From Alphaproteobacteria bacterium (GTDB taxonomy: Bacteria > Pseudomonadota > Alphaproteobacteria > UBA9219): a DNA stretch of 64,000 nt. The notes under the pieces were generated by a model. The model was not told the DNA's origin. It did no database searches and saw only the letters and a list, made by a program, of their open reading frames with translations. The stretch is from NCBI GenBank assembly GCA_031291395.1, contig JARLJD010000109.1:8294-72293 (forward strand), read 5' to 3'. A program made the position numbers and the translations under genes. Shown here in pieces: positions 3,543 to 57,507 of this stretch. Within the stretch, counting starts at the first letter, position 1. Each line of letters starts with the position of its first letter.

Positions 3543-5254
3543 TAATGATTCTCCTGATACATCCAGTTGCGCAGGATTCCGATCGCTTCGTCAGGATGCT
3601 TGTCGACGATTTCGCCGACCTTGCGCAGGGAGGAAGCCTTGACGCGTCCGTCGACGCGCGAAATGTCGATCATGCGTTCGATCTCGGACTCCGCCGCCGC
3701 GGCTGCGGACTCGGCTGAGGACTCGCCGCCTGACATGCCTGCGGGAGCCGGCAACTGCGCGACGTTGCCGCCGCCGCTGAGCAAAGCCTGCTGATCGGAG
3801 CCGACGGATCCCGCCGTCTCCAGAACTTTGCGTAAGATGGGGCGCACAACCAAAAGCACGACCAAAAGTCCGATCAAAGCGAGAATTAGAGTCTCCGCCG
3901 CATGGAAAATGTCGGCGCGGGGAATGCCCATCAAAAGATCGGGGTTGCCGGAGGTCGCTCCTTTATCCTGTTCGCCCTGCGCGAATTGCATATCGGTCAC
4001 GTCCAGCGTATCGCCGCGCGAAGCGTCGAAATTCACCGCCGATTTCACCAGATCCTTGATTTTGGCAAGCTCTTCAGGCGTGCGCGGGGCATAAGTGGTC
4101 GTTTTGCCGTCGGCCGAGGTTTTATAGGTGCCGTCGACGACGACCGCGATCGACAGTCGGCGAACGCGCCCGCTTTCGCGCACCTGATTGCGCACCGTTT
4201 TGTTGATTTCGTAATTGATCGTCTCTTCGGAGTGTTTGTTGTTGCTGGTTGGCGTGCTTGCCGCTGCCGGTGTTGCGCCTCCGTTCGCGATTTGCTGCGG
4301 CGTGGCGGGAAGATTGGTGGAGACGGACACGGCGCCGGAATTGCCTTCGGAATTCGTGTCCGTTTCGTTTGTGTTTTGTGTCGAACGTACAACCTGACTG
4401 TCAGGGTCGAAGATTTCCGAACTGGTGGTAATGCGGTCGAAATCCAGATCGGCCGATACCTGCGCCCTTACTTTGCCAAAGCCCAGCGTTTGGGTCAGCA
4501 AATCCTCGATCTTGCGCGTCTGCGCTTGTTCATACTGGATGCGCTGATCTTCCTGATCGTCTTGGCTGTCGCCCGCGGCATTATTGCTGGGGCGCGCCAA
4601 AAGATCACCCCTGTCGTCGACGATCGAAACCTCGTTGGGCTGCAACTGCGGCACGGCGGCTGCGATCAGATGCTGAATAGCGGCGATTTGCTCGCGTGAT
4701 AGAACCGCGCCGTTGCGCATTTTAAGGAAAATGCTGGCGGTTGCCGTCTGGGTCGCGTGGCTGAACAATTCGCGCTGCGGCAGCACCAGATGCACGCGCG
4801 CGCTGTTGATGGGATCAAGTGAGCTTATCGTTCGCTCCAATTCTCCTTCCAGCGCGCGCAGGTGATTGATGTTTTGCACAAAGCTGGTGGTGCCAAAGCC
4901 TTCTTTCTGATCGAAAATCTCGTACCCGACCGAACCGCCTCTGGGCAGGCCATCGGACGCCATCAGCATGCGTATTTTTCCGACCTGATCGGATGGGACG
5001 CGGATCAGGCTGCCGCTTGAATCGACCTGATAGGGGATTTTAAGGGCGTCGAGCTTTCCCGCGATCGCTGCCGAGTCATGCTGGTCGAGTTCCGTATAAA
5101 GCAAGGCAAGCGGCGAGGTCGAAATCCGCGTCGTGATAAAGCCAAGCATGCCCAGCAAACTGACGAGAACGACCGCAATCGCCGCCAGCCGCATAGGCCC
5201 CAGATTGCGCAGAGTCTGCAAAAATGCATTCACCTGTTTATTCTCCTGCTCCAC
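3542..5254 (-). CDS. fliF: flagellar M-ring protein FliF
   Basis: 570 aa. An N-terminal TM segment, a conserved periplasmic ring domain, a low-complexity linker and a C-terminal TM segment. Confidence 0.9.
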
Positions 5255-5555
5255 GGATGAAGAATCCTCGGACGAGGCTCCTTAGGCTTTAACCAAACAT
5301 CGGCACAAATTGCCCACTGATTCTTTCTATTGGTTAAACAATGGAGGGGGCTTTATGAAAATTTCCTTAACAAAGTCGGCAGAAATTGCCGCCACACCCT
5401 ATTTCTGTGTCTTTCATGCAACACAAGGGATTGGGTGCGGTTGCCAAGTTACTACTACATAATGATGTTGGTCAAGAGATTAACTATATCGTTTCAGCGT
5501 TTGTCTGTCCGTTTGTGAATAAGTGACTCAATGGGCAACCCCAAGCCGAAGGTGC

Positions 5556-5600
5556 CTTCATCCCCCCCCAAAAGGGGGAGCGGGAATCCCGCCGGTTTTG
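5556..5600. repeat. partial family-A repeat (solo hairpin, reverse orientation)
   Basis: cccccccaaaagggggagcgggaatcccgcc, the same GGGGGAG...GGGAATCC end motif as the other family-A copies. Confidence 0.4.
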
Positions 5601-5603
5601 CAT

Positions 5604-6683
5604 TCAATTTGCCGCCCGCAGACTTCGCTGGCGCAGCATATGATCGGCAAGGACGCAGGCGATCATAGCCTCGCCGACGGGAACTGCGCGGATTCCGACG
5701 CAGGGGTCGTGTCTGCCTCTGGTAATGATATCAGTGTTTTGTCCTGCGGTGTTGATTGTTTGCCGCATCTGCAGGATGGAGCTTGTCGGTTTGACGGCAA
5801 AGCGGGCTGTTATGTCTTGCCCGTTGGAAATGCCGCCCAGAATGCCGCCTGCGTTGTTGGACAGGAACTGCGGTTTGCCGTCGGAACTCATGCGCATTTC
5901 GTCGGCGTTTTCTTCGCCTGTCAGGTTGGCCGCGCCAAACCCCGCGCCGATTTCAACGCCCTTGACTGCGTTGATCGTCATCAAAGCGCGGGCGATGTCG
6001 CTGTCGAGTTTGTCATAGATCGGCTCGCCCCAACCCGCAGGAACGCCGGACGCCACGACTTCAACCACAGCGCCGATGGACGAGCCGTTTTTACGTATTT
6101 TGTCCAGATCATCTGCCCATACTGCGGCGGCTGTGGGATCGGGGCAAAACAGCGGATTTTGATCGACCGCGTTCCAATCCCATCGGTTGCGGTCGATTTT
6201 ATGCGCGCCGATTTGCACGACTGCGCCGCAGATTTTTATGGAATCGCCAAGGATTTTACGCGCCACAGCGCCCGCAGCGACGCGGCATGCCGTCTCGCGC
6301 GCCGAGGAACGCCCGCCGCCGCGATAATCGCGAATTCCGTATTTCACCCAGTAAGTGTAATCGGCATGACCCGGGCGGAATTTATCCTTGATGTCGTCAT
6401 AGTCCTTCGACCGCGTGTCGGTGTTTTCGATCACGAGGCTGATTGGCGCGCCAGTCGTGACTCCCTCGAAAACGCCAGACAGAATCTTGACCTTGTCCCC
6501 CTCCTGCCGCTGCGTCGTGAAACGCGACTGCCCGGGCCTGCGCTTGTCGAGCCACGGCTGAATGTCAGTTTCGGTTAAGGGAATAAGCGGCGGACAGCCG
6601 TCGATCACGACGCCGATCGCAGTGCCGTGGCTTTCGCCCCATGTGGTAAAACGGAAAATTGTGCCGAGGCTGTTGGAGGACAT
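5604..6683 (-). CDS. aroC: chorismate synthase
   Basis: 359 aa. The N-terminus [11 protein letters not shown] and GRSSARETA signature motifs are present. Confidence 0.9.
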
Positions 6684-7922
6684 TTAAGTCTCTTCGTAGT
6701 TGATGTCTTTGCCGTAAGTCTCGTCAATATTCATCCACCCCCAAAACGCGGCGGCGAATACGATCAAACCGATGACGCCGACGGCGACTTGCGAATTATA
6801 AAGGGGTTTAATCAGCCCGAACAACAGATTCATGGGAATCACCAGCGCGCGCGCAAAATTAGGGACGGTCGTCGCCACGGTCGCCCGAACATTGGTTCCG
6901 ACCTGTTCCGCAATCGACGCGCCGCCGATCATCCAAATTCCAAAAGAAAGGCCAAGCAATCCGTTGGTTATGTAAAATTCCTCGCGGCTGCCCGGAATCC
7001 ATAAAAGGTATTTCAGGAAAACAATCACGCCTAAAACAATAGAGGCAATAATTGCTTTTTTCCGGCTACCCATTTTTTCGCTTATAAGACAGGCGAAAAG
7101 CGCGCCGAACAAACCGCCTGCAAAACCGAGAGTCAGAGTCAGTCCCGCCTTGATCGGTTCTGTGATTCCTTGCGCTTGCGCTATTTCGGGAGACAAAGTC
7201 CAGACGATTTGCGGGATAAATGTGCAGGGCGCTACAAGAAAAATGGCGGCAATATATTTTCTCAGCAGCTGAGGATTCCAGAAAATGATTTTCAATCCGC
7301 CGCGAGTTGCTACGCGCTTGGCCATTTCGGCGTACATTCCGGATTCAAACACAAGAACACGGGCAAGCAGCAAAACAAGGCCGGCAATGCCGCCGACAAA
7401 ATAGGCTTTGCGCCACGAAAGTTCTTCTGTCGCCAAGGCTGCCAGCAGAACGCCGCAAATGCCGAGAACAAGGAAGAATGCCACGCCATAGCCTCGCCGA
7501 TCCGGCGCGAGTTTTTCGGATATGAGCGTAAGCCCGACGCCAAGTTCACCCGCGACTCCCACCCCCGCCAGAAACCGCCCCAGCGCATAATGATCGACCG
7601 TTTGCACCGCGCTGCAATAAAGCGCTGCCAGCGAATAAGTTAGAATGGACGCGAACAGGCATGATTTTCGCCCGAACTTGTCGCCCAAAACGCCCCATAG
7701 ATAACTGCCCACCAAAAGCCCGAACAACTGCCCGTTACCGATAAACAGTCCGGCATTGGTCAAGGCATCGCCGCTTAAGTGAAGGGCGCTCAGGCTTTCT
7801 GTTCTTGTGACGTTGAAGATGAGAAAGTCATACATATCGACAAGATATCCGAGCGCCGTAACAATCACTGTAGCATTCAGAATTTTGGTCGTCAGAAGAA
7901 GCGGGGGGGGGGTGGAGGACAT
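6684..7922 (-). CDS. MFS transporter
   Basis: About 12 predicted TM segments with an MFS-like loop (GDKFGRK). The start is set at the internal Met (ATG complement 7920-7922); the longer ORF that runs to 8078 is basic and low-complexity and overlaps the next gene. Confidence 0.65.
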   Translation of the reverse strand: MSSTPPPLLLTTKILNATVIVTALGYLVDMYDFLIFNVTRTESLSALHLSGDALTNAGLFIGNGQLFGLLVGSYLWGVLGDKFGRKSCLFASILTYSLAALYCSAVQTVDHYALGRFLAGVGVAGELGVGLTLISEKLAPDRRGYGVAFFLVLGICGVLLAALATEELSWRKAYFVGGIAGLVLLLARVLVFESGMYAEMAKRVATRGGLKIIFWNPQLLRKYIAAIFLVAPCTFIPQIVWTLSPEIAQAQGITEPIKAGLTLTLGFAGGLFGALFACLISEKMGSRKKAIIASIVLGVIVFLKYLLWIPGSREEFYITNGLLGLSFGIWMIGGASIAEQVGTNVRATVATTVPNFARALVIPMNLLFGLIKPLYNSQVAVGVIGLIVFAAAFWGWMNIDETYGKDINYEET

Positions 7923-7923
7923 T

Positions 7924-8778
7924 TCATCCCTCGCTGCGCTTTTTGATTTTCTTCGTCTCCGGCAAATAATTTGTCTTGCTGACGACTTTGCGGCCGGTTT
8001 GAACTTCCAGTTCCTTGCGCGCTTTACCGGCGACTTTGCCGCCTTCAATGGCGGCGACCCTGTTTTTGTTGAAGCCATGCGCGTTTTTGGTCTGCGCGAT
8101 TTCGGTCGTCGCGGCTTCGCCCAGCATCGTGAAAATCAATTCAAGATCGTTCATGTGGTCGCGCAGATTATGCTGCTTGCCAAGGCTTTTCAGGTTTTTG
8201 TATTGCTGCGGTTTCAGGCCGAACGTTGCCTGAGATATTTCTGCCGTTAAAATCGCGTATTCCTTTGTGCCTTTGACGCCGCGCTTGCCCCATTCTTCGG
8301 TCAGCTTTTCGCGAACGGCTATGCCGCGCATGCGTTTTTCGATCCAGTCGTTGGGATAGCCCTTGGCTTTGTATAATTCGCGCGTGCGCTGCGTGGCGAG
8401 TTCGGGATTTTCGATTTCCTTGATGCGTTCATAGCCGATTTTGGCCAGCCACAGCTTAAACGGTTCGGCCTTGGGCGAGGGGACGGATTGGATGATGCGC
8501 AGCATCGTTTCGGTGTTGGCGCAGTCGGTTGTATATAATTTTCCGTCAGCCGAGGGCAGTTTGAGTTGTACGATTTTCTCGTACAACTGGTTCTCTCCTT
8601 GTTCTTGCTCCACTTTCCTTTTCAAATCAGACCAATAGCGGCGCGCATTGGCGCTTTCGCTAAGAACGCCAACAACATCAACCACCGAAAACAACCACTC
8701 ATTGTTATGCCATTTGCGGCGGATGTGGTGATCTTCAAAAGCGACCAGATGTGACGGCACAGAGGGGAGGTTAGACAT
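7924..8778 (-). CDS. DinD-like / Bro-N domain protein (DNA-damage-inducible protein D family)
   Basis: The N-terminus (FEDHHIRRKWHNNEWLFSVVDVVGVL) resembles a Bro-N/KilA-N-like DNA-binding module. The C-terminal half matches my memory of the DinD family. This family is often phage-associated. Confidence 0.5.
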   Translation of the reverse strand: MSNLPSVPSHLVAFEDHHIRRKWHNNEWLFSVVDVVGVLSESANARRYWSDLKRKVEQEQGENQLYEKIVQLKLPSADGKLYTTDCANTETMLRIIQSVPSPKAEPFKLWLAKIGYERIKEIENPELATQRTRELYKAKGYPNDWIEKRMRGIAVREKLTEEWGKRGVKGTKEYAILTAEISQATFGLKPQQYKNLKSLGKQHNLRDHMNDLELIFTMLGEAATTEIAQTKNAHGFNKNRVAAIEGGKVAGKARKELEVQTGRKVVSKTNYLPETKKIKKRSEG

Positions 8779-8821
8779 TGCGTTTCCTTTGCGTCCTAAA
8801 GTGAATGGGCTTTCGCGGTTC

Positions 8822-9694
8822 TCACTGCCCATTCACCCCCGCATTCATAGTCCCAACCAATTCCGCCAGTTTCTGCGTCTCATCCACCGCGATCATGCCG
8901 ACGGTGTGGTAGCCGGAATCGACGTGAAGAACTTCGCCGGTGACGCCTGTACCCAGATCGCTAAGCAGATAAAGGGCGGAATGGCCGACTTCGAGCGTGG
9001 TGACGTTGCGTTTTAACGGCGCGTTGACTTCGTTCCATTTCAGGATGTAGCGGAAATCGCCGATGCCGCTGGCGGCCAACGTCTTGATCGGGCCTGCGGA
9101 AATGGCGTTGACGCGAATGCCTTTGCCGCCCAGATCGACCGCCATATAGCGCACGCTGGCTTCCAGCGCGGCTTTGGCGACGCCCATCACGTTGTAGTGC
9201 GGCATCACGCGCTCGGCGCCCAGATAGCTGAGCGTCAGAAGGCTGCCGCCGCGGGGCATCAGCGGCATCGCGCGGCGCGCCAGCGCGGTGAAGGAATAAC
9301 AGGAAATGTCCATCGTGCGCAGGAAGTTCTCGCGCGTCGTATTGACATAAAGCCCGTCAAGTTCGTTTTTGTCCGAAAAGGCGATTGCGTGGACGAGAAA
9401 ATCGAACGATCCCCATTCTTTCTTCAACGCTTCGAATAAAGAGTCCATGCTTGCTTCGTCCGTCACGTCGCAGGGCAGGATCAGTTTCGAGCCGACGGAG
9501 GCGGCCAAAGGCGCGACGCGTTTTTGCAGCGCCTCGCCCTGATAGGTGAAAGCCAGTTCCGCGCCTTGTGCGGCGCACACGGATGCGATGCCCCAAGCCA
9601 GCGAACGGTCGTTCGCCACGCCCATAATCAAGCCGCGTTTGCCGGAGAGGAGTGAACCTTGAAGGGCCGCGGCGGGAGAGGGAGATTCTATCAT
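8822..9694 (-). CDS. fabI: enoyl-[acyl-carrier-protein] reductase (NADH) FabI
   Basis: An SDR fold with LSGKRGLIMGVANDRSLAWGIA at the N-terminus and the FabI catalytic region (YNVMGVAKAALEASVRY). Confidence 0.85.
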   Translation of the reverse strand: MIESPSPAAALQGSLLSGKRGLIMGVANDRSLAWGIASVCAAQGAELAFTYQGEALQKRVAPLAASVGSKLILPCDVTDEASMDSLFEALKKEWGSFDFLVHAIAFSDKNELDGLYVNTTRENFLRTMDISCYSFTALARRAMPLMPRGGSLLTLSYLGAERVMPHYNVMGVAKAALEASVRYMAVDLGGKGIRVNAISAGPIKTLAASGIGDFRYILKWNEVNAPLKRNVTTLEVGHSALYLLSDLGTGVTGEVLHVDSGYHTVGMIAVDETQKLAELVGTMNAGVNGQ

Positions 9695-18226: not shown

Positions 18227-18303
18227 GCGGGTGTAGCTCAGTTGGTTAGAGCGTCGGCCTGTCACGCCGAAGGTCGCGGGTTCAAGTCCCGTCACTCGCG
18301 CCA
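18227..18303 (+). tRNA. tRNA-Asp (GTC)
   Basis: GCGGGTGTAGCTCAGTTGGTTAGAGC...CCTGTCACG...GGTTCAAGTCCCGTCACTCGCGCCA: a cloverleaf with anticodon GUC and an encoded CCA. Confidence 0.9.
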
Positions 18304-20174: not shown

Positions 20175-20251
20175 TGGTGCGCCCTGCGGGATTCGAACCC
20201 ACGACCTGCCGCTTAGAAGGCGGCCGCTCTATCCAACTGAGCTAAGGGCGC
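20175..20251 (-). tRNA. tRNA-Arg (TCT)
   Basis: The reverse complement reads GCGCCCTTAGCTCAGTTGGATAGAGCGGCCGCCTTCTAAGCGGCAGGTCGTGGGTTCGAATCCCGCAGGGCGCACCA. The anticodon loop CTTCTAA gives anticodon UCU. Confidence 0.85.
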
Positions 20252-32169: not shown

Positions 32170-32235
32170 TAGGAGCGGCTTCCAGCCGCGACTGTTGTCG
32201 TAAAAAAAAGGCCGCGGCTGGAAGCCGCTCCTACG
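32170..32235. repeat. repeat family B, perfect palindrome (likely bidirectional terminator)
   Basis: gtaggagcggcttccagccgcgac ...a8... gccgcggctggaagccgctcctac, between convergent genes. Confidence 0.7.
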
Positions 32236-33376
32236 AGAAAGCGTGATTTGTGTTATTCTGTAGTATTATCATAACCTTCCATAATTCCCCCATTTCCGCG
32301 GGCGAGGTCAGTTTGTCGAGGGCGGCGACGATTTTATTTTTTTCCGGCGGCGAGGCTTCGCGTTTGTAGGCTTGCGTTTTTATGCCGAGTTCCAAGAGAA
32401 AATCGCCTTGGCCTTTCAGGTCTGTGACCCGCGCGCCTTGCGTTTCCGCCGCGCGGCGCAGGGCGGAGAAATCGACGCCAACCGTTATATCCGTTTGACC
32501 CGGGGACGTCAGAAGGTTTGTATAAATATGCTGGCTCCAAGCGGCAAAGGTCGGCTGACCGGAGGGCGCGGCGTGGCCGTAATCTATGACAAGCGCGGTT
32601 CCCCCATGCCGGACGATATGCGCGGAAATTTTCTCGATGATTTGGCGGGATTGGTTGGATATTTCGTAGGCGCCCCACGGTTTTGCTTCTTTCAGATTAT
32701 CGTTGAGGAATTTTTTGGTCGAGGGATCGGTTATTTTCTCGTCCACGAAAAACAGGCTTCCGTTTTTGCAATCGACGCGGCGTTCCATCCAGCCTGACGG
32801 GGCGTTTAGGAACAGCCGCGCCGGAATATTGTCGAAAAATTCATTGGCGATGACGAGGATCGGTTCGGCATTAAGCTGGGCGAGGTTTTCGATATGAACG
32901 GGGGAAAACTTCGCCAGAATTTCCTGTTGCAGGGCGCGCAGGGTCGCATTGCTTTCGATCAGGCGGATGTTCAGGGCTTTATGAAAATCCGGCGCGGATG
33001 ATGTGGCGCGCAACAGGTCGTTCAGCAAAGTGCCGCGGCCGGGGCCGAGTTCGAGGAGGGTGAAGGATTCGGGTTTTCCCATTTTCTCCCACGCGTTCAG
33101 GCACCAGACGCCGATCATTTCTCCGAACAGAGGGCTGATTTCGGGGGCGGTGTGGAAATCCCCGTGCGCGCCGATGGGATTGCCTTTGCGATAATAGCCG
33201 TAGCGGGGATGTTGCAGCGTTATCTCCATATAACGCTCAAGCGTTAGGGGGCCTTGCCGTCGGATGATGTCTTTGAGGATCGGCACGAGGGGCGCGGCGG
33301 CGCGGTTTATTTGAAAGCGAAGATAGCGGTTGGCAAGGAACTGTTTGAAGCGGCGGATGTATTTGGGGCGTTTCAT
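32231..33376 (-). CDS. MidA-like class I SAM-dependent methyltransferase (DUF185 / NDUFAF7 family)
   Basis: 381-aa C-terminal portion of track ORF 32231..34555, with LELGPGRGTL motif I and DUF185-like sequence. The start is set at MKRPKY (ATG complement about 33374-33376); the upstream extension is antisense to mnmA. Coordinates may be off by ±1. Confidence 0.6.
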   Translation of the reverse strand: MKRPKYIRRFKQFLANRYLRFQINRAAAPLVPILKDIIRRQGPLTLERYMEITLQHPRYGYYRKGNPIGAHGDFHTAPEISPLFGEMIGVWCLNAWEKMGKPESFTLLELGPGRGTLLNDLLRATSSAPDFHKALNIRLIESNATLRALQQEILAKFSPVHIENLAQLNAEPILVIANEFFDNIPARLFLNAPSGWMERRVDCKNGSLFFVDEKITDPSTKKFLNDNLKEAKPWGAYEISNQSRQIIEKISAHIVRHGGTALVIDYGHAAPSGQPTFAAWSQHIYTNLLTSPGQTDITVGVDFSALRRAAETQGARVTDLKGQGDFLLELGIKTQAYKREASPPEKNKIVAALDKLTSPAEMGELWKVMIILQNNTNHAFS

Positions 33377-33463
33377 TGGGGGAACCGGTGCTTGTTTTTT
33401 GGCGGCGTGTATACTGTAATAAGGCGCGAAAACATAATCACGGATGATGCGGAGGAAGGCAAC

Positions 33464-34549
33464 TTGGAATTTGATCAGGAACCCAAAGGCGCGCGGGTTG
33501 CCGTCGCGATGTCGGGCGGCGTGGATAGCGGCGTAGCGGCTGCCTTGCTGGCGCAGCAGGGGTGCGATGTCGTCGGTGTGACGATGCGGCTTTATAGCGG
33601 GGGGAAAGACGCCGTTGAGGATGCGCGTCGAGTGGCGGATAAGATAGGGATTCCGCATCATGTTTTCGATTGCGCAAGCGAATTTTCGCACAGCGTGATT
33701 GACGATTTCGCGGACAGTTATTTGCGCGGCGAGACGCCTGTGCCTTGCGCGCGGTGCAATCAGCGCATCAAATTCGGCGCGTTGCTTTTGAAGGCGCGCG
33801 AGATGGGCGCCGAGGCTTTGGCGACGGGGCATTACGCGCGGCGCGTGATGGGGGCGAAGGGCGCGGAGTTGCATCGCGCGGCGGATCAAACCCGCGATCA
33901 AAGTTATTTCCTGTTCGCGACGACGCAAGAGCAGTTGGCGTTTCTGCGTTTTCCTTTGGGCGGGATGAGGAGCAAGGATGACGTTCGCGCTTTGGCCGCA
34001 CGTTTTGATTTGCCGGTAGCGTCGAAGCCGGACAGTCAGGATATTTGTTTCGTCCCGGACGGCGATTACGCCGGTCTTGTCGCCAAACTGCGCCCGGGCG
34101 CGTGCGCGGCGGGGGATATCGTTGATGAGCAAGGGCGCGTTTTGGGGCGGCATGAGGGCATCATTCATTACACGGTCGGGCAAAGGCGCGGACTGAATTT
34201 CGGGCGCAGGGGCGAGAATAACGCGCCGCTTTATGTTCTGCGGTTGGATGCCGAGAGAAAGCTGGTCGTTGTCGGGCCGCGGGAATCCCTTGCGCAGCGG
34301 GAGGTTTTTTTGCGCGAGGTTAATTGGTTGGGCGATGTCGTGCCGGAGGAGGGGATCGGCGTCAGCATCAAACTGCGTTCCGCGCAGCCGCCCTTGGCCG
34401 CGATTTTCCGGATGCATGACGAAGGTCGCGGCGTTGTGACCCTTGCCGAGCCAGCATACGGCGTCGCGCCCGGGCAGGCGGGGGTGATTTATGCGGGGGA
34501 GCGGGTGTTGGGGGGCGGGTGGATTGAGTCGCAATACCCCTCCGTCTGA
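33464..34549 (+). CDS. mnmA: tRNA-specific 2-thiouridylase MnmA
   Basis: PP-loop VAVAMSGGVDSGVAAALL plus the catalytic Cys region (CARCNQRIKFGALL). There is no in-frame ATG near the expected N-terminus, so a TTG at 33464 is proposed. Confidence 0.75.
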   Translation: MEFDQEPKGARVAVAMSGGVDSGVAAALLAQQGCDVVGVTMRLYSGGKDAVEDARRVADKIGIPHHVFDCASEFSHSVIDDFADSYLRGETPVPCARCNQRIKFGALLLKAREMGAEALATGHYARRVMGAKGAELHRAADQTRDQSYFLFATTQEQLAFLRFPLGGMRSKDDVRALAARFDLPVASKPDSQDICFVPDGDYAGLVAKLRPGACAAGDIVDEQGRVLGRHEGIIHYTVGQRRGLNFGRRGENNAPLYVLRLDAERKLVVVGPRESLAQREVFLREVNWLGDVVPEEGIGVSIKLRSAQPPLAAIFRMHDEGRGVVTLAEPAYGVAPGQAGVIYAGERVLGGGWIESQYPSV

Positions 34550-35523
34550 AACCACTTTATAGCGTCTTCAATGGCTTCGCGGGCGGGGCGGGAGGTGTAG
34601 GTTAGGTCGCGGGTGGCTTTGGCTGACGTGAAATACATTTTCTTTTTTGACATGCGCAGGGCGTCGCGGGTGACGATGGGGTTCCAGCCGGTTAGGCGGG
34701 CGGCGAGTTCCATGCCGATGGCGACGGGATAAATCGCGGCGCGGGGGAGTTGGATTTTGGGGGCGGGGCGGCGGGTAAGCTCGGCGATGATTGCGAGGAT
34801 GTCGCTGAGCGCGAGGTTGTCGCCGCCGAGGATGTAACGCTCGCCGATCTTGCCGCGCTCCAAAGCCAGCCAGTGTCCCAGTGCGACATCGTCGACGTGG
34901 ACGACGTTCAGGCCGGTGTCGACATAGGCGGGCATGCGGCCGCGCGCGGCGTCGACGATGATGCGGCCGGTTGGAGTCGGCTTGATGTCGCGCGGGCCTA
35001 TGGGGGTTGAGGGATTGACGATAACGGCGGGAAGGTTGTGGTGTTCGATCAGGCGGCGGACTTCGGCTTCGGCGAGATATTTCGATTGTTTATAAGTGCC
35101 GACCATATCCTCGAAAGTCACGGGCGAATCTTCGCTCGCGGGCGAGCCGTCTTTGTGCAGACCTAACGTCGCGACTGAGCTTGTGTAGACCACGCGTTCA
35201 ACATTGGCATCAAGAGCAGCAAGCATCAGAGCGCGGGTGCCATCGATATTGACGCGGTTCATTGCCGCAGCGTCCGGCACCCAAATCCGGTAATCTGCCG
35301 CGACGTGCAGGAGGTTACGGCAGTTTTTTAAGGCATTACGGTAGGTTTCAGGTTGGGTGAGGTCGCCTTCGACGATTTCGATGTCTAGGCCGTTCAGATT
35401 GCGGCGGTCGTTATGGGGGCGCGAGAGGACGCGCAGACGATGCCCTTTGGCGATCAGTAAGCGGGCGACAGCCGCACCGACAAAGCCGGTGGCTCCGGTG
35501 AGGAAGGTGGTTTGTTGGGTCAT
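34489..35523 (-). CDS. NAD-dependent epimerase/dehydratase family protein (HpnA-like)
   Basis: N-terminal Rossmann motif FLTGATGFVGAAV and a YxxxK region. Confidence 0.65.
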   Translation of the reverse strand: MTQQTTFLTGATGFVGAAVARLLIAKGHRLRVLSRPHNDRRNLNGLDIEIVEGDLTQPETYRNALKNCRNLLHVAADYRIWVPDAAAMNRVNIDGTRALMLAALDANVERVVYTSSVATLGLHKDGSPASEDSPVTFEDMVGTYKQSKYLAEAEVRRLIEHHNLPAVIVNPSTPIGPRDIKPTPTGRIIVDAARGRMPAYVDTGLNVVHVDDVALGHWLALERGKIGERYILGGDNLALSDILAIIAELTRRPAPKIQLPRAAIYPVAIGMELAARLTGWNPIVTRDALRMSKKKMYFTSAKATRDLTYTSRPAREAIEDAIKWFQTEGYCDSIHPPPNTRSPA

Positions 35524-35570
35524 TCTACTTATCGAAGGGGTTTCATTGATTATTCATTTGAACAAATTCA

Positions 35571-38282
35571 TCACCCGTTCGCCGCATGCAATTCTTCTTT
35601 GATTTGCTGCAGGTGCCCGTCGAGGATTCCGAGGGTGTCGACCAGTTCCGTTAGAATCTCCGCTTGTTTTTCGAGTTGGACTTGCGTGGCAAAATCAGAG
35701 ACGGATCTGGTTGGCGCAAGCGTCGGCTTGGCGGTCAGACGGGTTTCTATTTTATCGAGTTGCCCTGCAATTTCTCCGACCAGACTGGCGCGCGAGGCTT
35801 CGATCTGCGCCGACACCTGAAACCACTGGTCGAGGAATTGCTGCTGCATCTCCGGCGGAATGGAACATGTCGGCATCGGGATGGGTTTGCCCGCTTCCGC
35901 TTGCGCGGCCTCTGCCGCCTGACGAGTCGCGGCGAGCTCTTGACCGAACGCGCTGAGCGCCAGATTGGTTTCCCCCTGCGCGGCGGCGATCTTCTCGCCA
36001 AGCGCGGCGATGTCGTTTTGTTCGCTTAGATTCTGCAGTTCTTCCCGCAAATTCTGGCGCAAGTCGCCGGGCAAGGCCGAAGCCAGAATGGCGACTTTGC
36101 CGTTCAGTTCGGCCAGTTCCGCGACTTTTTCCTCTAGAACGGAAAGCTGGTTTTGCTCCTTCAAAACTTGCAGCTCCTCCCGCAAATTCTGGCGCAAATC
36201 GCCGGGCAAAGCGGAGGCCAAAATGGCGACTTTGCCGTTCACTTCGGCCAATTCCGAAATCTTTGCGCCGAGATCGGCTATATCGTTGTGCGCGGTTATG
36301 CGTTGCAAATCTTCCTGTAAATTGGAGCGCATTTGGTCGGGCAGGGCGGTGACAAACGCGGCAATCCGTTCGTGCAATGCGGTCAACGATGCCGCTACGG
36401 CCTCCTTCTGCTCCGCATGATTTTGCGCGAGGTTTTGTTCCAAAGCCCCGGCCAAGCCCGCTTGCGCGTCTTTCTGTTCGTCAAGTTTGATTTGAAGCGC
36501 CGCCAATTGTCCCGCGATATGTTCAAACTGGCTTGCTAAGGGAACCAAAGCGGATTCCGGCGCGGCTCCAACCTGAATGTTTGTTTGCCCCTCCAGCTTG
36601 TTTTGCACCAAGGCCAATTGGCTTGCGATTTGTTCAAGCTGACTTTTCAAAGGCGCTGCAATCGCGTCCGGCGCAGCGCCTTTTTCCAAGGCCTCCGCAA
36701 AATAGGCATGCGCGTTTGTTTGCTCGTCCAGTTTAACCTGTAAGACATCCAACTGCCCCGCGATATGTTCGATCTGGTCGGTCAAAGGAGCCAATACGGA
36801 TTCTTGCGTTGCCGCGCCGACAGGCGTGTTCGCCTTTTCGTCCAGCCCGTTTTGCAGCGTCGTCAACTGATCCTTGATCTGGTTCAACCGTTCGGCCAGC
36901 GCGGCGAATTGCGCTTCGGGGGCGTTGTTTTTGATGTTCTCCGTCGTTTCGGCCAGAACTTTTCCGCCCGCTTGCAGCAAATTAATCGCGCCGAACAAAC
37001 GCTCGCCCAGATCGTCCGCCGTCGAGGAAAGTTTGTTTAGCGTTTCCCCTGCTTGTTCGGCGTTCGACTTCAAACCGATTTCGCTGGTGGCCAAAGACTG
37101 CAACGTTTGCGCGATCTGCTTGCCCGTTATTTGCGTAATCTCGGCAAGCCCTTGAGCGCGATCCTGAATAAGCGGGATCAAGCGGGTCAACTGATCGGCG
37201 GCGTGCGCGTGCGCGTTTTTCAAATTTTCCGCCGAACCCGTCATCTCGGCAATCGCCTGTTTAATCTGCATATCGCCACTTTGCCCGCTTTTGGCAATAT
37301 TTTGTAAAATCGTTTCGACTTTTTGCGCTAGCGCGGCGACGGACTGCTTTTGTAGCGCAACGGCATCGGTCAGCGTCGCGGCCTGCGCGCGGATGGTTTC
37401 CGAGTCGCCGGAGATCGCCTTCATCATTGCTTCGAACAGAGAGCGCGAACCGCCTTCAAACCGCATGCGCACGGGGCCTTGTTCGCTGAGCAGCGACAGA
37501 TCGGGCAGGTGGCTGAATTGATATCGCGCCAGATCAACGGCGCGCGCCAACTCGCCGATCATGTCCTGCCGTTCGATGCCCCAAATGGCGGTGCGCATGT
37601 CGCCGCGCGCCATATTCTGGATGCTTTGCGCCAGCGCGCGCATGGGTGCGGATTGCCGGTCGCGTAAAACCAAATAAATGCCGGCGGCGCAAGCGGCCGC
37701 GATGATCAGGCTGCTCCAACTGACCAAGGTCAGTAGCATCGCCCAGAACTGCATCCCTTTTTGCGCCGCAAGCCGCGCCGAGGCATTGGCGGCCGCGTCC
37801 CGCGTTTCCAAAACCGGCAAAGTCGCATAAAGCGGCGCAAGATCGGCGGCGGTGAATTCATTTGCCCCTGTTGCGTCCGCAGGCGCGTCGATTTTCTGCA
37901 GCGCTCCATCGAACATCGCGGCAATCGCGGTCAATTCGCGGTGCGTCTCGGCGGAAGTTGTGTCAGGCAGATGCGCGACGATATCATCCGCCGATTTGAT
38001 CAGTTCTTTCATATCGGCAAAGTTCGACGCGTCGCGCGTCGAGACATATTTCTGCGCAAGGCCGACAAATCCCCCATAGCCCCAATCGCGGCGCAAACTG
38101 TCGAACATATCCTGATTGCCGCCCAAAGCGTTATCGGGCGCGGCCAGCACTGTCTCCGCGCGGTCGAGCTGATATTTCATATACCCCGCCCCGCCGATCA
38201 TCGCCACGCAGACAAAGACTGTAAGGCTAAGCGCAAAAGCAGCAAAACGACTGACGCCGGAGAAGGGAGAGTTGGGGGACAT
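35571..38282 (-). CDS. large membrane-anchored HAMP-domain coiled-coil protein with internal tandem repeats
   Basis: Two TM segments flank a periplasmic region of about 200 aa. A HAMP-like segment follows (PMRALAQSIQNMARGDMRTAIWGIERQDMIGELARAVD), then about 600 aa of heptad-rich sequence with repeated blocks (e.g. VAILASALPGDLRQNLREELQ twice). The start is set at the internal Met preceding TM1. Confidence 0.45.
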   Translation of the reverse strand: MSPNSPFSGVSRFAAFALSLTVFVCVAMIGGAGYMKYQLDRAETVLAAPDNALGGNQDMFDSLRRDWGYGGFVGLAQKYVSTRDASNFADMKELIKSADDIVAHLPDTTSAETHRELTAIAAMFDGALQKIDAPADATGANEFTAADLAPLYATLPVLETRDAAANASARLAAQKGMQFWAMLLTLVSWSSLIIAAACAAGIYLVLRDRQSAPMRALAQSIQNMARGDMRTAIWGIERQDMIGELARAVDLARYQFSHLPDLSLLSEQGPVRMRFEGGSRSLFEAMMKAISGDSETIRAQAATLTDAVALQKQSVAALAQKVETILQNIAKSGQSGDMQIKQAIAEMTGSAENLKNAHAHAADQLTRLIPLIQDRAQGLAEITQITGKQIAQTLQSLATSEIGLKSNAEQAGETLNKLSSTADDLGERLFGAINLLQAGGKVLAETTENIKNNAPEAQFAALAERLNQIKDQLTTLQNGLDEKANTPVGAATQESVLAPLTDQIEHIAGQLDVLQVKLDEQTNAHAYFAEALEKGAAPDAIAAPLKSQLEQIASQLALVQNKLEGQTNIQVGAAPESALVPLASQFEHIAGQLAALQIKLDEQKDAQAGLAGALEQNLAQNHAEQKEAVAASLTALHERIAAFVTALPDQMRSNLQEDLQRITAHNDIADLGAKISELAEVNGKVAILASALPGDLRQNLREELQVLKEQNQLSVLEEKVAELAELNGKVAILASALPGDLRQNLREELQNLSEQNDIAALGEKIAAAQGETNLALSAFGQELAATRQAAEAAQAEAGKPIPMPTCSIPPEMQQQFLDQWFQVSAQIEASRASLVGEIAGQLDKIETRLTAKPTLAPTRSVSDFATQVQLEKQAEILTELVDTLGILDGHLQQIKEELHAANG

Positions 38283-38387
38283 GATGATGAAGGAAATGGG
38301 AACGGGGAAGGCGGGGGGATTATGGTAAATTTTGGGTGGAAAAGCAATCGGTTCATGGGGCATGCTTACCCCCACGTCAAAAAAAAT

Positions 38388-38530
38388 GTCGTTATTCCAG
38401 CGAAAGAGGGAATCCATCTTGAGGCGCGTCTGCGCCGATAAAAACAACTGCATTTTCAATGGAACTGCAGTTGGACTTTTATGCTCGCTATCGCGAGCGA
38501 TGGATTCCTGCTTTCGCGGTAATGACGATC
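38388..38530. repeat. repeat family C, full element with terminal inverted repeats
   Basis: gtcgttattccagcgaaagagggaatccatc ... gatggattcctgctttcgcggtaatgacgatc. Confidence 0.65.
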
Positions 38531-38602
38531 AGACGGAAGAAGAGAAAAAGTCGCTAATTAGTTTCAAGATTCTATGCTATGTTTTTTTAATTATGAGGTT
38601 AT

Positions 38603-38899
38603 ATGCCTCCAATAAAGCAACTTTATAATCATGAGGGTACAATGAAGAATACGACAAAATGCCTTTTTGCTGTCGCAGCTGTCGGGGGATTAGTGTGGGC
38701 CGGGAGTCATTTATATAAGACACAAAAGAAGAATGGTAATTTGTCCTCGAGGGCGGCTATCTCGCAAAGTTGCGGCCTTCTTCCCGATCCTGATTATACA
38801 CAGGAGGAGGTGATTGCGTCGTTTTGCGAGAATGTCGCCGATCCTGCTCATCCTGCGGACGTCTGTCGTAAAAACGTGACCAAGAGACTGGAACGGTAG
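38603..38899 (+). CDS. small hypothetical secreted/membrane protein, 98 aa
   Basis: An AT-rich ORF with an N-terminal hydrophobic segment (CLFAVAAVGGLVWAG) and four Cys residues. Confidence 0.35.
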   Translation: MPPIKQLYNHEGTMKNTTKCLFAVAAVGGLVWAGSHLYKTQKKNGNLSSRAAISQSCGLLPDPDYTQEEVIASFCENVADPAHPADVCRKNVTKRLER

Positions 38900-38917
38900 T
38901 TCTAGCAAGGGTCAACA

Positions 38918-38958
38918 GGGACGGAGTGTGAGAAAGAACACTCCGTCCCTCCCGATTT
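38918..38958. terminator. bidirectional rho-independent terminator
   Basis: gggacggagtgtgagaaagaacactccgtccc followed by a T-rich tail, between convergent genes. Confidence 0.6.
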
Positions 38959-38967
38959 TATAAATAG

Positions 38968-40107
38968 TTACTCATTCAACCCCGTTCGCGATATCCTCAA
39001 ATCCCGATGCACGGAAATCGACAACAACACGCCGCAGCCGATCAAGAGGGTCATCATCGCTGTGCCGCCATAGGACACAAGAGGCAGGGGGATGCCGACG
39101 ACGGGGATGGTGCCGGTGACCATGGCGACGTTGACAAAGACATAAAGAAAAAACGTCACCGTCAGGCCGAAAGCCGCCAGCCGCCCGAACTGGTTCTGGC
39201 AGGTCAACGAGATCATGAAGCCGTAGGCGATCAGCAAGAAATACATAAAGAGAAGGCACAAAGCGCCCAGTATGCCGAATTCCTCGGCGAGGACGACGAA
39301 GATGAAATCGGTGTGTTTTTCGGGCAGGAATTGCAACTGGCTTTGCGTGCCGTGGCCAAAACCGCGCCCGAACAGGCCGCCTGAACCCAGCGCGATTTTC
39401 GATTGCAGGATATTATACCCTCGGCCTAAAGGATCGGATCCAGGATTCAGAAAAGTCAGTAAACGGGCTTTCTGATAGTCGTGCAGGTGGTGCCACGCGA
39501 TCGGCAGGATTGCGGCAGCTATGGCGATCACGATCACGAATTTCCACCAGCGTACGCCGCCTGCAAAAAACACCGCGCCGCTGGCCAATGTTAAAAGCAG
39601 AGCCGTCCCGAGATTGGGCTGTAACAACACCAGCCCCACGGGCGCCAGAACCATAGCGACCGGAGCCAGAAGTTTATGCGGCTGGCCGATTTCCTCCAGC
39701 GACAATCCGTGAAAATATTTTGCCAGCGCCAGAACCAGCGTGATTTTCATCAATTCCGAGGGCTGAATAACGAAAAAGCCCAGATTAATCCAGCGTTGCG
39801 CCCCCATGCCGATATGCCCCATGACCTCGACCACGACCAGAAGAAGAAGCATCAGCGCATACATCGAATAAGCGTATTGAAGCCAGACGCGCACATCCGT
39901 TAAAGCGATCACCATCATCAAGCAAAGCCCCGCCGCAAACCGCGCCAATTGAGGCCCAGCCCACGGATGCCAGCTTTTCCCTCCGGCAGAATAGAGCAAA
40001 GCGACGCCGGTAAGCCCGATCATGACGATCAATAAGATCATGCCCCAGTTCAGAAGCCGCAGCTTCTCGGGGAGGGTGAGGTTGTCGGAGGGGGAGAGGC
40101 GGGACAT
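38968..40107 (-). CDS. SEDS-family peptidoglycan glycosyltransferase (RodA/FtsW)
   Basis: 379 aa with 10 TM helices and conserved SEDS motifs (FQPSELMKI, GTIPVVGIPLPLVSYGG). Confidence 0.85.
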   Translation of the reverse strand: MSRLSPSDNLTLPEKLRLLNWGMILLIVMIGLTGVALLYSAGGKSWHPWAGPQLARFAAGLCLMMVIALTDVRVWLQYAYSMYALMLLLLVVVEVMGHIGMGAQRWINLGFFVIQPSELMKITLVLALAKYFHGLSLEEIGQPHKLLAPVAMVLAPVGLVLLQPNLGTALLLTLASGAVFFAGGVRWWKFVIVIAIAAAILPIAWHHLHDYQKARLLTFLNPGSDPLGRGYNILQSKIALGSGGLFGRGFGHGTQSQLQFLPEKHTDFIFVVLAEEFGILGALCLLFMYFLLIAYGFMISLTCQNQFGRLAAFGLTVTFFLYVFVNVAMVTGTIPVVGIPLPLVSYGGTAMMTLLIGCGVLLSISVHRDLRISRTGLNE

Positions 40108-47114: not shown

Positions 47115-47118
47115 AAGC

Positions 47119-47513
47119 GCCAGACGGTCTATAAGCCGGGTTTTGTCATCGCATTGCTGCAATGGACGATCATTCATCTGGGACGTTTGTTGCCAAACGC
47201 CTCAAGCAACCAACCCGAGCCGCGCGCGGGGAAAGCGCCGCGCACCTATGATACGAATATCAGGTATGCGCTATGCGGCTCCTATTCGGTTTTGCTTCGG
47301 GTGGGGTTTTCCGTGCCGCCTTTGTTGCCAAAGACGCGGTGCGCTCTTACCGCACCTTTTCACCTTTTCCCTCCCTTACGAGAAGGTAGTTTGTTTTCTG
47401 TGGCACTTTCCTTCGAGTCGCCCCGACCGGACGTTATCCGGCACCCTTTTCCCCTGAAGCCCGGACTTTCCTCCCCAACCTGAAGGAAGGGGCGATCATC
47501 CGACCGTCTGGCG
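47119..47513 (-). ncRNA. rnpB: RNase P RNA, bacterial type A
   Basis: The reverse complement carries GGAGGAAAGTCCGGGCT (P4), GGGTGCCGGATAACGTCCGG, AAGGGTGAAAAGGTGCGGTAAGAGCGCACC, CACGGAAAACCCCACCCGAAGCAA and AGATGAATGATCGTCCA...ACAAAACCCGGCTTATAGACCGTCTGG. It is colinear with E. coli M1 RNA, and the P1 pairing is CCAGACGGTC/GACCGTCTGG. Confidence 0.85.
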
Positions 47514-54981: not shown

Positions 54982-57507
54982 ATGCGCATAAGCCTTATCT
55001 GCGGCGGCCCTTCCGCCGAGCGCGGCATATCCTTAAACTCCGCGCGGTCGGCGATGGATCATCTGACGCCATTGGGGTGGGAGATCGTGCCGTTCTATTG
55101 CGATCTGGAACGCCATTTCTATCGCTTGTCGCCTTCGCAGCTTTATTCCAACACGCCATCCGATTTCGATTTCAAACTGGCGCATACGGCGCAGCCTTTG
55201 ACGGAAAGCGAATTCATCGCAGCGTGCCGCGAAACCGATCTTGTTTTTCCCGCCATTCACGGCGCGTTCGGCGAGGACGGGCAGTTGCAGGAATTGCTGG
55301 AAGCGCACGACATTCCCTTTGTCGGCTCTCCCGCCGCCGCATGCCGGTTGATGTTCGATAAGGCGATCGCCAACACGCATATGGCGCAGCACGGCTTTGC
55401 GACATTACCAAACTGCCGCATCGACGAAAGCGACGCGCCGGATGTTCGGTTGAAAAAAGCGAGCGATTTCTTTGCGCGCACTCACATCGACAAAGCTGTC
55501 GTGAAACCTTCCGCCGGAGGGTCGAGCCTCGGCGTCGCAAGCGCGGTAACGCCGCAAGAAGCCGCCGCGCGCGCCGAGGATATTTTTGCGCAAAAGCACG
55601 GTGCGCAAGCTCTGATTGAGCCTTATTGCCAAGGCCGCGAATTCACCGTCGTCGTTTTGCAAAACAAAAAGGGCGAGCTGGTCGCGTTGATCCCGACCGA
55701 AATCGACCTGATCGGCGGCGATCTGTTCACGTTCCGCCATAAATATCTGCCGACCTGCCACGTCGAATATCATTGCCCGCCGCGCTTTGCCGACGACGTG
55801 ATCGCGCGCATTCAGAAAGCCGCCGAGGTTCTGTTTACCTTTTTCGACATGCGCGATTTCTCGCGCCTCGACGGCTGGCTGTTGGACGACGGGCGTTTGA
55901 TTTTCTCGGATTTCAATCCTATCTCGGGCATGGAGCAAAACAGTTATCTGTTCATTCAGGGCAGCCGCATCGGCTTCACCCACGGCGATACGCTGCGGTA
56001 TATCGTCGCGCACGCGGCGGAACGGTATGGGATCAAAGCCCCTCTCCCCCCCCTTGGGGGGAGAGGGGTTGGGGTGAGGGGGGAAGTTGGGGTTTGTGAA
56101 TCCCTCGTCCCCCCTCACCCCCGCATCAAGTGCGGGGCAGGCTCTAACCCTCTCCCCCCAAGAGGGGGGAGAGGGAATCCGCCCACAAACATCCGCGTTC
56201 TTTTCGGCGGAACGACGGCGGAACGCCAAGTCTCTTTGATGTCCGGCACAAATGTGTGGCTGAAATTGTTGCACAGCGCGGATTATATGCCCGCGCCTTA
56301 TATCCTCGCGCCGGAACATGAAATCTGGCAATTGCCTTACAGCTTCACCCTCAATCACACGGTCGAGGAAATCCTCGCGCGGTGCGCCGAATCCGAAAAT
56401 ATTGTTGCGCGGCTGAAAGTCCTCGTCCCGCCTCTGCGCCAGCGTTTGGGCTTGCCGCCCTTGCCCGCCAACGCTTTTATCCAACCGCGCCGCATGAGCC
56501 TCGATCAATTCTGTCGGGAATCCGCCGATGAAAACGCCTTCGTGTTCATTGCCCTTCACGGCGGCGAGGGCGAGGACGGGACGTTGCAGGCGAAATTCGA
56601 CAGCTACGGACTTGCCTATAACGGCTCCGCGCCTGCGGCCTCGCATGTGTGCATGGATAAAAGCGCGACGGGCGACGTTTTGCGCGCTTTGAACGATCCG
56701 CTTTTGACCTCTGCCGGAAAAGTTTTGCTGACGGCGGGGCAGGGGGGACGGGCCGAAGCGATTTGGGCGGACGCCGTGCAAAAATTGAAAACCGCCGACA
56801 TCCTCATCAAGCCGCAAGCCGACGGCTGTTCCGCGGGAGTCGTGCGTTTGCAATCCGCGCAAGAATTGAAACTGTATCTGCAAGCTTTGGCGCAAGGGCA
56901 AACGATGCTGCCCGCGGGCACGCTGGCGCATCAACCGATGATGATCGAATTGCCTGAACAGGCGGACGCCTTCATGCTCGAACCCTTTATCGTCACTGAC
57001 GCTATTTATATCTCCGGCCTTCATCTTACGCACACGCCGCGAACCGGCTGGATCGAATTGACGGTCGGCGTGTTGGAAGAAAAAGGCGTTTATCACGCCC
57101 TGTCGCCCAGCATCACCGTGGCCAAAGGCCATGTCCTCTCGCTGGAGGAAAAATTTCAGGGCGGCACAGGCGTCAACCTGACCCCGCCGCCTGCCGACAT
57201 CATTTCCGGCGAGCAAATCGACCTGATCAAAAGCAAAATTGAAAAAACCGCCAATGCGCTAGGCATCGAAGGCTACGCCCGCATCGATATTTTCTTTAAC
57301 ACGCGCAGCAACCAGACAATGGTCATCGAAGCCAACACTTTACCGGGACTCACCCCCTCGACGGTTATTTATCATCAATCCCTAGCCGAAACCCCGCCGC
57401 TTGCGCCGCGCGAGTTTTTGGCGAAATTGGTGGAATTCGGCAGGGAACGGCAGGCGCGAGGATTGGAAGAAACGCGATCTGTGGCGCAAGCGGTGAGAGA
57501 ATTATAG
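54982..57507 (+). CDS. tandem (double) D-alanine--D-alanine ligase-like ATP-grasp protein, linker encoded by a family-A repeat
   Basis: Residues 1 to about 353 and about 400 to 841 each resemble a complete Ddl (N-domain MRISLICGGPSAERGISL / IRVLFGGTTAERQVSLMSG; E.NT.PG(L/M)T C-terminal motifs). The roughly 47-codon linker is the repeat copy at 56041-56183 with no stop codon in this frame. Confidence 0.6.
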   Translation: MRISLICGGPSAERGISLNSARSAMDHLTPLGWEIVPFYCDLERHFYRLSPSQLYSNTPSDFDFKLAHTAQPLTESEFIAACRETDLVFPAIHGAFGEDGQLQELLEAHDIPFVGSPAAACRLMFDKAIANTHMAQHGFATLPNCRIDESDAPDVRLKKASDFFARTHIDKAVVKPSAGGSSLGVASAVTPQEAAARAEDIFAQKHGAQALIEPYCQGREFTVVVLQNKKGELVALIPTEIDLIGGDLFTFRHKYLPTCHVEYHCPPRFADDVIARIQKAAEVLFTFFDMRDFSRLDGWLLDDGRLIFSDFNPISGMEQNSYLFIQGSRIGFTHGDTLRYIVAHAAERYGIKAPLPPLGGRGVGVRGEVGVCESLVPPHPRIKCGAGSNPLPPRGGRGNPPTNIRVLFGGTTAERQVSLMSGTNVWLKLLHSADYMPAPYILAPEHEIWQLPYSFTLNHTVEEILARCAESENIVARLKVLVPPLRQRLGLPPLPANAFIQPRRMSLDQFCRESADENAFVFIALHGGEGEDGTLQAKFDSYGLAYNGSAPAASHVCMDKSATGDVLRALNDPLLTSAGKVLLTAGQGGRAEAIWADAVQKLKTADILIKPQADGCSAGVVRLQSAQELKLYLQALAQGQTMLPAGTLAHQPMMIELPEQADAFMLEPFIVTDAIYISGLHLTHTPRTGWIELTVGVLEEKGVYHALSPSITVAKGHVLSLEEKFQGGTGVNLTPPPADIISGEQIDLIKSKIEKTANALGIEGYARIDIFFNTRSNQTMVIEANTLPGLTPSTVIYHQSLAETPPLAPREFLAKLVEFGRERQARGLEETRSVAQAVREL
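56041..56183. repeat. MITE-like repeat family A copy lying in-frame inside a coding region
   Basis: cctctcccccccccttggggggagagggg ... ccccctcacccccgcatcaagtgcggggcaggctctaaccctctccccccaagaggggggagagggaatccgcc. Confidence 0.7.

Follow-up and report, generated by a model that had tools for sequence, protein, structure and literature searches.

How might a HAMP receptor signal when neither a kinase domain nor a chemoreceptor tip follows its HAMP domain? The question is raised by a minus-strand gene in a 64,000-nucleotide stretch of DNA from an alphaproteobacterium of the GTDB lineage UBA9219 (assembly GCA_031291395.1, contig JARLJD010000109.1, positions 8,294 to 72,293; hereafter the window), which encodes a long membrane protein with a helical, repeat-containing cytoplasmic region (the HAMP/repeat protein). 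We propose, with middling confidence, that this protein is an inner-membrane, chemoreceptor-derived signal transducer in which HAMP would drive a conserved unit and an expandable set of acidic partner-binding modules, giving a signal-responsive scaffold. Its tandem repeats, which a preliminary description made from the sequence alone had taken to be recently homogenised, proved to be old.

The overall layout proposed earlier, a membrane protein with a periplasmic domain, a HAMP domain and a long helical tail, was borne out by Pfam, AlphaFold2 (AF2) and Foldseek. In an AF2 model of the full protein built with the family alignment (mean predicted local distance difference test score, pLDDT, of 74), the second transmembrane helix (TM2) extends into the first HAMP helix, AS1, and the connector and AS2 come next. 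The Pfam HAMP match fell under the gathering cut-off (E 0.008, 16.9 bits, with the cut-off at 25), and PF00672 is on record for 14 of the 119 homologs, 552-1413 aa in length, that were found in a search of 5.8 billion proteins. Foldseek matched the Af1503 HAMP domain in the PDB at a root-mean-square deviation of 0.9-1.4 Å (probability 0.95-0.98), and the family profile matched Af1503 HAMP chains at E 6e-5; two amphipathic helices and a connector after TM2 were thus found by both profile and fold. For the sensor, Foldseek returned the NarQ sensor-TM-HAMP structure (0.94-0.99), the Adeh_2942 sensor and the PcaY ligand-binding domain, all with weak E-values, as well as an E. coli chemoreceptor (8c5v_I), again with a weak E-value.

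The family-specific motif that directly follows HAMP, FSHLPDLSLLSEQGPVRMRFEGGSRSLFEAMM, has five invariant columns (P260, D261, P270, G277 and F283; residues are counted from the ATG at 38282) and no match in Pfam or the PDB; strands at 263-266 and 269-272 were predicted in the full AF2 model and again in a core-only model. Three long core helices follow (282-331, 336-382 and 384-453), and then many shorter ones broken at Pro/Gly. In all, the predicted helices are interrupted 18 times or more, with a Pro/Gly break every 15-70 residues. Hydrophobic periodicity is weak, at 3.5-3.7; by Fourier analysis it ranges over 3.2-3.8 with low power and differs from segment to segment. The earlier term "heptad-rich" seems to hold only loosely. 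The cytoplasmic part is acidic (isoelectric point 4.8, net charge -34) and rich in Ala, Gln, Leu and Glu. At its end stand two conserved helices, A (LPPE.QQQ..DQW.Q..AQIEA.R) and B (EQQTQIL.ELV.TLG.LD.H.Q), with invariant R, Q, I, E, L, V, T and D columns in the family alignment. Searches with these regions gave generic coiled-coil matches only for the full-length profile against the PDB (ApoA-IV, SMC), nothing under E 0.06 for the C-terminal profile, and scattered sub-threshold coiled-coil and DUF matches for the C-terminal module in Pfam. A match of the core profile to BurrH (E 5e-14) was treated as a repeat or composition artefact, with 0 significant stretches. The NCBIfam search of the HAMP/repeat protein returned nothing meaningful and no kinase domains. 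These cytoplasmic modules, lacking Pfam and PDB matches, may represent an unrecognised, modular and non-enzymatic output on a HAMP receptor.

How close this protein stands to the methyl-accepting chemotaxis proteins (MCPs) bears directly on that output. Foldseek recovered an MCP-like input half made up of the periplasmic sensor, TM2 and HAMP, and hhalign and the PDB profile supported its HAMP domain. In profile searches the closest relatives with an annotation are genuine MCPs: in the tail of an exhaustive search (E ~1e-7 to 1e-5), 10 of 20 sampled matches were MCPs with HAMP and MCPsignal, while sampled intermediate matches (E 1e-23 to 1e-6) were without MCPsignal. The core profile also had a weak match in the PDB, to TM1143 at E 3.6e-4. 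Like Tar/Tsr-type MCPs (4HB_MCP/TarH, HAMP and MCPsignal), the family has a first transmembrane helix (TM1), a periplasmic four-helix bundle, TM2 and HAMP, and then an Ala/Gln/Glu-rich helical cytoplasmic region. Unlike them, it has no MCPsignal domain, hairpin tip or methylation consensus; a beta-hairpin motif comes straight after HAMP, the helices are split by Pro/Gly and by Pro/Ala linkers, and it is the middle of the cytoplasmic region that varies in length. No Pfam match to MCPsignal, HisKA or HATPase was found in the HAMP/repeat protein even at E<=1, and PF00015 is on record for 0 of the 119 homologs. The methylation consensus [ASTG]xx[EQ][EQ]xx[ASTG][ASTG] occurs at 1 site, with 0.8 expected from shuffles, and no alignment position carries it in >=20 of the 119 members. 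The earlier reading that neither an MCP signalling domain nor a kinase domain is present is thereby upheld: the canonical MCP domain that would make this an ordinary chemoreceptor was looked for and not found, nor were the HisKA/DHp and HATPase_c domains of a sensor kinase. The family looks MCP-derived, or at least MCP-like, yet lacks the features by which MCPs are defined.

The repeats were the second puzzle, having been described as near-perfect units of about 120 bp. Self dot-plots of the protein and Tandem Repeats Finder (TRF) confirmed that they are real and added a further, more diverged family. The main family, R2 (aa 639-781), gave scores of up to 97 at an offset of 45, with a second offset of 90, and R1 gave 56-76 at offsets of 45, 37 and 82; the highest score among 20 shuffles was 41. 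The repeat period proved to be 135 bp (45 aa) and not the ~120 bp first estimated: TRF found one array at 36034-36323 of ~2 copies with 75-80% matches and no indels (scores 338 and 323), and an independent repeat search gave the same spacing at 78% identity. Nor are the units almost identical. The two complete ones, U1 and U2, share 34 of 45 residues and 104 of 135 nucleotides (77%), with 0.156 nonsynonymous (dN) and 0.86 synonymous (dS) substitutions per site by the Nei-Gojobori method. The only block that they share unchanged at the protein level is the 24-residue NGKVAILASALPGDLRQNLREELQ (36168-36239 and 36033-36104); at the DNA level its two copies differ in 8 of their 72 bases, always synonymously (dN 0, dS 0.67), while outside it dN is 0.38 and dS 1.17. 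Because synonymous divergence is this high, the R2 duplication is old and has not been recently homogenised or gene-converted; because every difference in the block is synonymous, purifying selection has preserved the NGKVAILASALPGDLRQNLREELQ peptide in each copy. The repeats are unlikely to be an assembly artefact, since copies that differ at 23% of their bases are too divergent for assembler collapse or duplication. The 45-residue repeats are extra copies of one helical module that arose by tandem duplication in the source lineage; in the AF2 model each consists of a helix of 15-16 residues (16 in both complete units) and one of ~25.

These data bear on the proposal of rapid gain and loss of repeats by slippage or recombination, which would make the gene a contingency or phase-variable locus or a molecular ruler. 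The units are indeed in frame, tandem and 135 bp long, their number varies among species, those of one homolog (P0016) are 90-97% identical at the protein level, and several assemblies break inside the family gene. In the window, by contrast with what rapid change would require, the units are only 77% identical in nucleotides with dS of 0.67-1.17, their conserved-block differences are all synonymous, and no long identical tract able to support slippage is present. No strain-level variants were found by the protein homolog search or by a scan of JGI metagenome contigs, in which a degenerate 59-nt repeat pattern, designed to pick up same-species variants, gave 0 hits, and no structure was identified whose length the protein could set. 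At this locus the divergence at synonymous sites all but excludes rapid variation, and we regard it, or a ruler function, as very improbable.

Length variation in the family is instead between species. A hidden Markov model of the 45-residue unit found it in 33 homologs, once in 25, twice in 4, three times in 2 (one of them the protein in the window) and five times in 2. In multi-copy proteins the nearest relative of each unit is mostly another unit of the same protein, with within-protein identities of 79% in the window, 90% in P0002 and 97% in P0016; duplication therefore took place independently in several lineages, and these lineage-specific events underlie the differences in length. The nearest homolog of the HAMP/repeat protein is only 59-74% identical.

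Conservation along the protein peaks over TM2, HAMP and the post-HAMP segment (aa 176-300), where invariant residues cluster at aa 213-290 and 10 of 12 invariant columns fall at aa 217-283. Residues 351-450 are also highly conserved and terminate in the near-invariant ERLFGAINLLQAGGKVLAETT; residues 451-800 vary in sequence and length across the family; and occupancy and conservation climb again in the C-terminal module, with a conserved stretch at 826-900. In an exhaustive profile search with HAMP and core, 71 cluster representatives reached E<=1e-30, and the number rose to 348 at E<=1e-3. In their source databases the homologs are called hypothetical or, loosely, "methyl-accepting chemotaxis" or "HAMP domain-containing". 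Named organisms among the 119 are only metagenome-assembled genomes (MAGs) of uncultured Alphaproteobacteria or "Bdellovibrionales", and a pattern scan of 185,579 species-representative genomes gave 39 loci, every one in MAGs and 0 in cultured organisms; this statement covers members with a source name or record title, as the exhaustive profile library carries no names. Literature searches on CcfM, on HAMP together with RodA and coiled coils, and on HAMP proteins that lack an output domain gave no description of the family. It is an uncharacterised, lineage-restricted protein family. In three MAGs the gene is split across contigs or duplicated as a fragment (L034/L040, L027/L041 and L010/L042), with breaks at residues 310-393, which belong to the conserved core and precede the variable repeats; genes of this family are evidently hard to assemble.

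In the architecture established here, the periplasmic four-helix-bundle sensor and TM2 feed the HAMP domain, to which a family-specific conserved cytoplasmic unit made of the predicted beta-hairpin motif and three helices is joined. After this core come the variable acidic array of ~40-45-residue helix-break-helix modules and then the two conserved C-terminal helices. In the mechanism that we favour, a conformational change relayed by HAMP would, we infer, alter which partner proteins bind the helical modules, and the protein, with no kinase domain and no CheA/CheW-binding tip, would act as a signal-responsive scaffold and not as an enzyme. Of the roles suggested in the preliminary description, that of a scaffold is still viable; evidence for a ruler did not emerge.

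Several observations weigh against this proposal. In hhalign, the family core matched nine MCPs from the search tail at 98.4% with HAMP included, which speaks for MCP ancestry, but at only 46.6% (E 2e-4) once HAMP was removed. What is left is a weak resemblance to the N-arm of the MCP cytoplasmic domain, and the nine had been preselected as best matches, which biases the comparison. AF2 confidence past residue 260 is moderate (pLDDT 50-85, predicted template modelling score 0.38), and the conserved core modelled alone (aa 205-450) is poor (pLDDT 57). Of the 119 members, 10 are without the periplasmic domain, and periplasmic ligand sensing is therefore not a universal core function. No partner protein was identified for the HAMP/repeat protein, and the neighbourhood of the family gene differs among clades.

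Gene order gives two clade-specific leads and no universal partner. In the window the order is purQ (+), rodA (-), a 600-bp gap, the HAMP/repeat gene (-) and hpnA (-). Among 30 assessable species-level loci, 21 have purQ / rodA followed by the family gene on the same strand, including one whose protein is 33% identical (L030), and in 12 of these 21 the gene is separated from rodA by ~100-200 bp. Such an arrangement could reflect an elongasome-associated scaffold that works with RodA in positioning or regulating cell-wall elongation, its HAMP domain and transmembrane helices acting above all as a dimeric anchor. TIGR02210 identifies the upstream gene as a true rodA, whose other neighbour in the window and in relative L001 is purQ and not a PBP2 gene, and the sensor domain is dispensable within the family. 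We nevertheless consider this rather unlikely. The functionally unrelated purQ sits in the same block, which may simply be inherited gene order (RodA is 68-89% identical among syntenic relatives), 9 assessable loci have other neighbours instead of rodA, and in the window itself the gap and an opposite-strand open reading frame (ORF) lie between the two genes.

That gap has a GC content of 0.43. Since it is only ~100-150 bp in most relatives, the 600-bp gap with its ORF may be a lineage-specific insertion. The ORF, of 98 aa at 38603-38899 (+), has no Pfam or NCBIfam match, and a signal-peptide-like stretch, MKNTTKCLFAVAAVGGLVWAGS, starts at its internal Met 14.

The neighbours in the 9 other loci comprise a che cluster with nadK, carD-rimM, alaS, an amino-acid-binding protein, an AAA ATPase and others. 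In one distant clade (L047, L043, L046 and L029) the gene lies ~1 kb from a divergent HPTransfase-cheA(REC) pair with only nadK between, and the two of these loci that were read further also have cheW, cheY and cheB, L047 additionally cheR. The L047 cluster (2425-8959) runs cheR-cheB-cheY-cheW-cheA(C-terminal REC)-PF10090 HPTransfase (ChpT-like). The family might on this basis comprise non-canonical receptors of a Che-like pathway, taking the place of an MCP for a CheA-REC/ChpT-like phosphorelay. It would fit that no MCP gene was found in the L047 cluster, the only locus examined as far as 10 kb, that the family is MCP-like in overall architecture, and that the source organism is flagellated, as judged by FliF. 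MCP genes are, however, often unlinked to che clusters, and the che adjacency is confined to this one clade. Neither the source protein nor homologs with recorded Pfam matches have an MCPsignal tip, the hhalign alignment with HAMP removed ends just before that tip, no methylation consensus is conserved, and Pro/Ala-rich linkers interrupt the helices in a way that misfits a continuous MCP hairpin. Such a receptor role is in our view improbable.

The NarQ sensor-TM-HAMP structure is among the best structural matches, but the family protein has neither the DHp (HisKA) nor the HATPase_c domain of the sensor histidine kinases NarX and NarQ. The polar hubs HubP and FimV combine a periplasmic domain, a membrane anchor, acidic cytoplasmic imperfect repeats of ~45 residues that vary in number among species, and a short conserved C-terminal motif. 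The family follows a similar plan, with its acidity and varying repeat number demonstrated here, yet the likeness is confined to function and design: no LysM or FimV C-terminal domain match and no sequence relationship were detected. TipN and CcfM are membrane-anchored coiled-coil landmark proteins of Alphaproteobacteria and share with the family N-terminal transmembrane helices, a long helical cytoplasmic region and an alphaproteobacterial host; to our knowledge, they have no HAMP domain or 4HB sensor.

The features of the locus are collected in Table 1. The long ORF spans 35571..38459 on the minus strand, its upstream limit being a TTG at 38459. The N-termini of homologs line up with the Met at 38282 (MSPNSPF...), which is the family-consistent start, while NCBI places the start at ATG 38362 for a product of 930 aa (P0001, "MAG: Alphaproteobacteria bacterium", 100% identical). 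A foreign or mobile origin was rejected, as the GC content of the gene is that of the flanking genes and the family is vertically syntenic. A promoter and terminator scan of 35300-39100 gave nothing above shuffle expectation.

Table 1. Features of the HAMP/repeat locus, in window coordinates
Feature	Coordinates	Strand	Basis or remark
HAMP/helical-repeat protein, coding sequence	35571..38282	-	903 aa + stop; start = ATG 38282
TM1, aa 12-34	38181..38249	-	hydrophobic stretch in translation; within predicted helix 10-47
Periplasmic four-helix-bundle-type sensor, aa 37-175	37758..38174	-	AF2 (pLDDT ~85-97) and Foldseek
TM2, aa 177-204	37671..37754	-	hydrophobicity and AF2; followed by positively charged RDRQSAPMR
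HAMP domain, aa 206-258	37509..37667	-	Pfam (sub-threshold), Foldseek, PDB profile match, hhalign
Post-HAMP family-specific motif, aa 259-290	37413..37508	-	predicted beta-hairpin
Cytoplasmic core, three long helices, aa 291-453	36924..37412	-	conserved; near-invariant C-terminal end
Repeat family R1, aa 489-620	36423..36818	-	~3 diverged units of type PL..Q.EHIAGQL..LQ.KLDEQ
Repeat family R2, 45-aa/135-bp tandem units	35940..36419	-	TRF, repeat search and self dot-plot
R2 unit U0 (diverged)	36285-36419	-	unit comparison
R2 unit U1, aa 667-711	36150-36284	-	unit comparison
R2 unit U2, aa 712-756	36015-36149	-	unit comparison
R2 partial unit U3	35940-36014	-	unit comparison
C-terminal module, aa 805-903	35574..35870	-	two conserved helices split by Pro/Ala-rich linker
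rodA, upstream neighbour	38968..40107	-	TIGR02210, 410.7 bits (cut-off 336.7)

Hopanoid genes stand directly downstream of the family gene in the window and in L001. In the window, hpnA (34489-35523, -; TIGR03466, 491 bits) was rejected as a conserved partner, as it adjoins the gene in the source window only. The downstream region of relative L001 (11994-14585) carries a PNP_UDP_1-family gene, hpnG-like by position, and a squalene-hopene cyclase gene. Elsewhere in the window, the flagellar M-ring protein FliF is encoded at 3542-5254 (-), and the organism is therefore probably motile. A 774-aa ORF at 32231-34555 (-) is a chimera in which only 32231-33253 (Methyltransf_28) is a real gene, the remainder being antisense to mnmA at 33254-34549 (+). 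An 841-aa ORF at 54982-57507 (+) has two separate stretches that match the N- and C-terminal domains of D-Ala-D-Ala ligase and appears to be a tandem-fused double Ddl. The RNAs of the window are a class A RNase P RNA (47116-47511, -; 326 bits) and two tRNAs (18227-18300, +; 20178-20251, -).

A wider lesson is that recent homogenisation should not be inferred from identical peptide repeats until their synonymous sites have been examined. If the scaffold mechanism is correct, this would be a HAMP receptor that signals through a length-adjustable modular scaffold and not through a kinase, a cyclase or a CheA array, and it would offer a candidate link of envelope sensing to RodA, or to an orphan Che pathway, in an uncultured alphaproteobacterial lineage. 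A more specific account, which we offer as a long shot, is that the family descends from chemoreceptors whose CheA/CheW tip was swapped for expandable partner-binding helices, with output to the RodA elongasome in the main clade or to an MCP-less CheA-REC/ChpT-like phosphorelay in the distant clade. Were that so, the input would come from the periplasm or membrane, and in the RodA case envelope sensing would be coupled to cell-wall growth; either would be a new kind of output logic among HAMP receptors.

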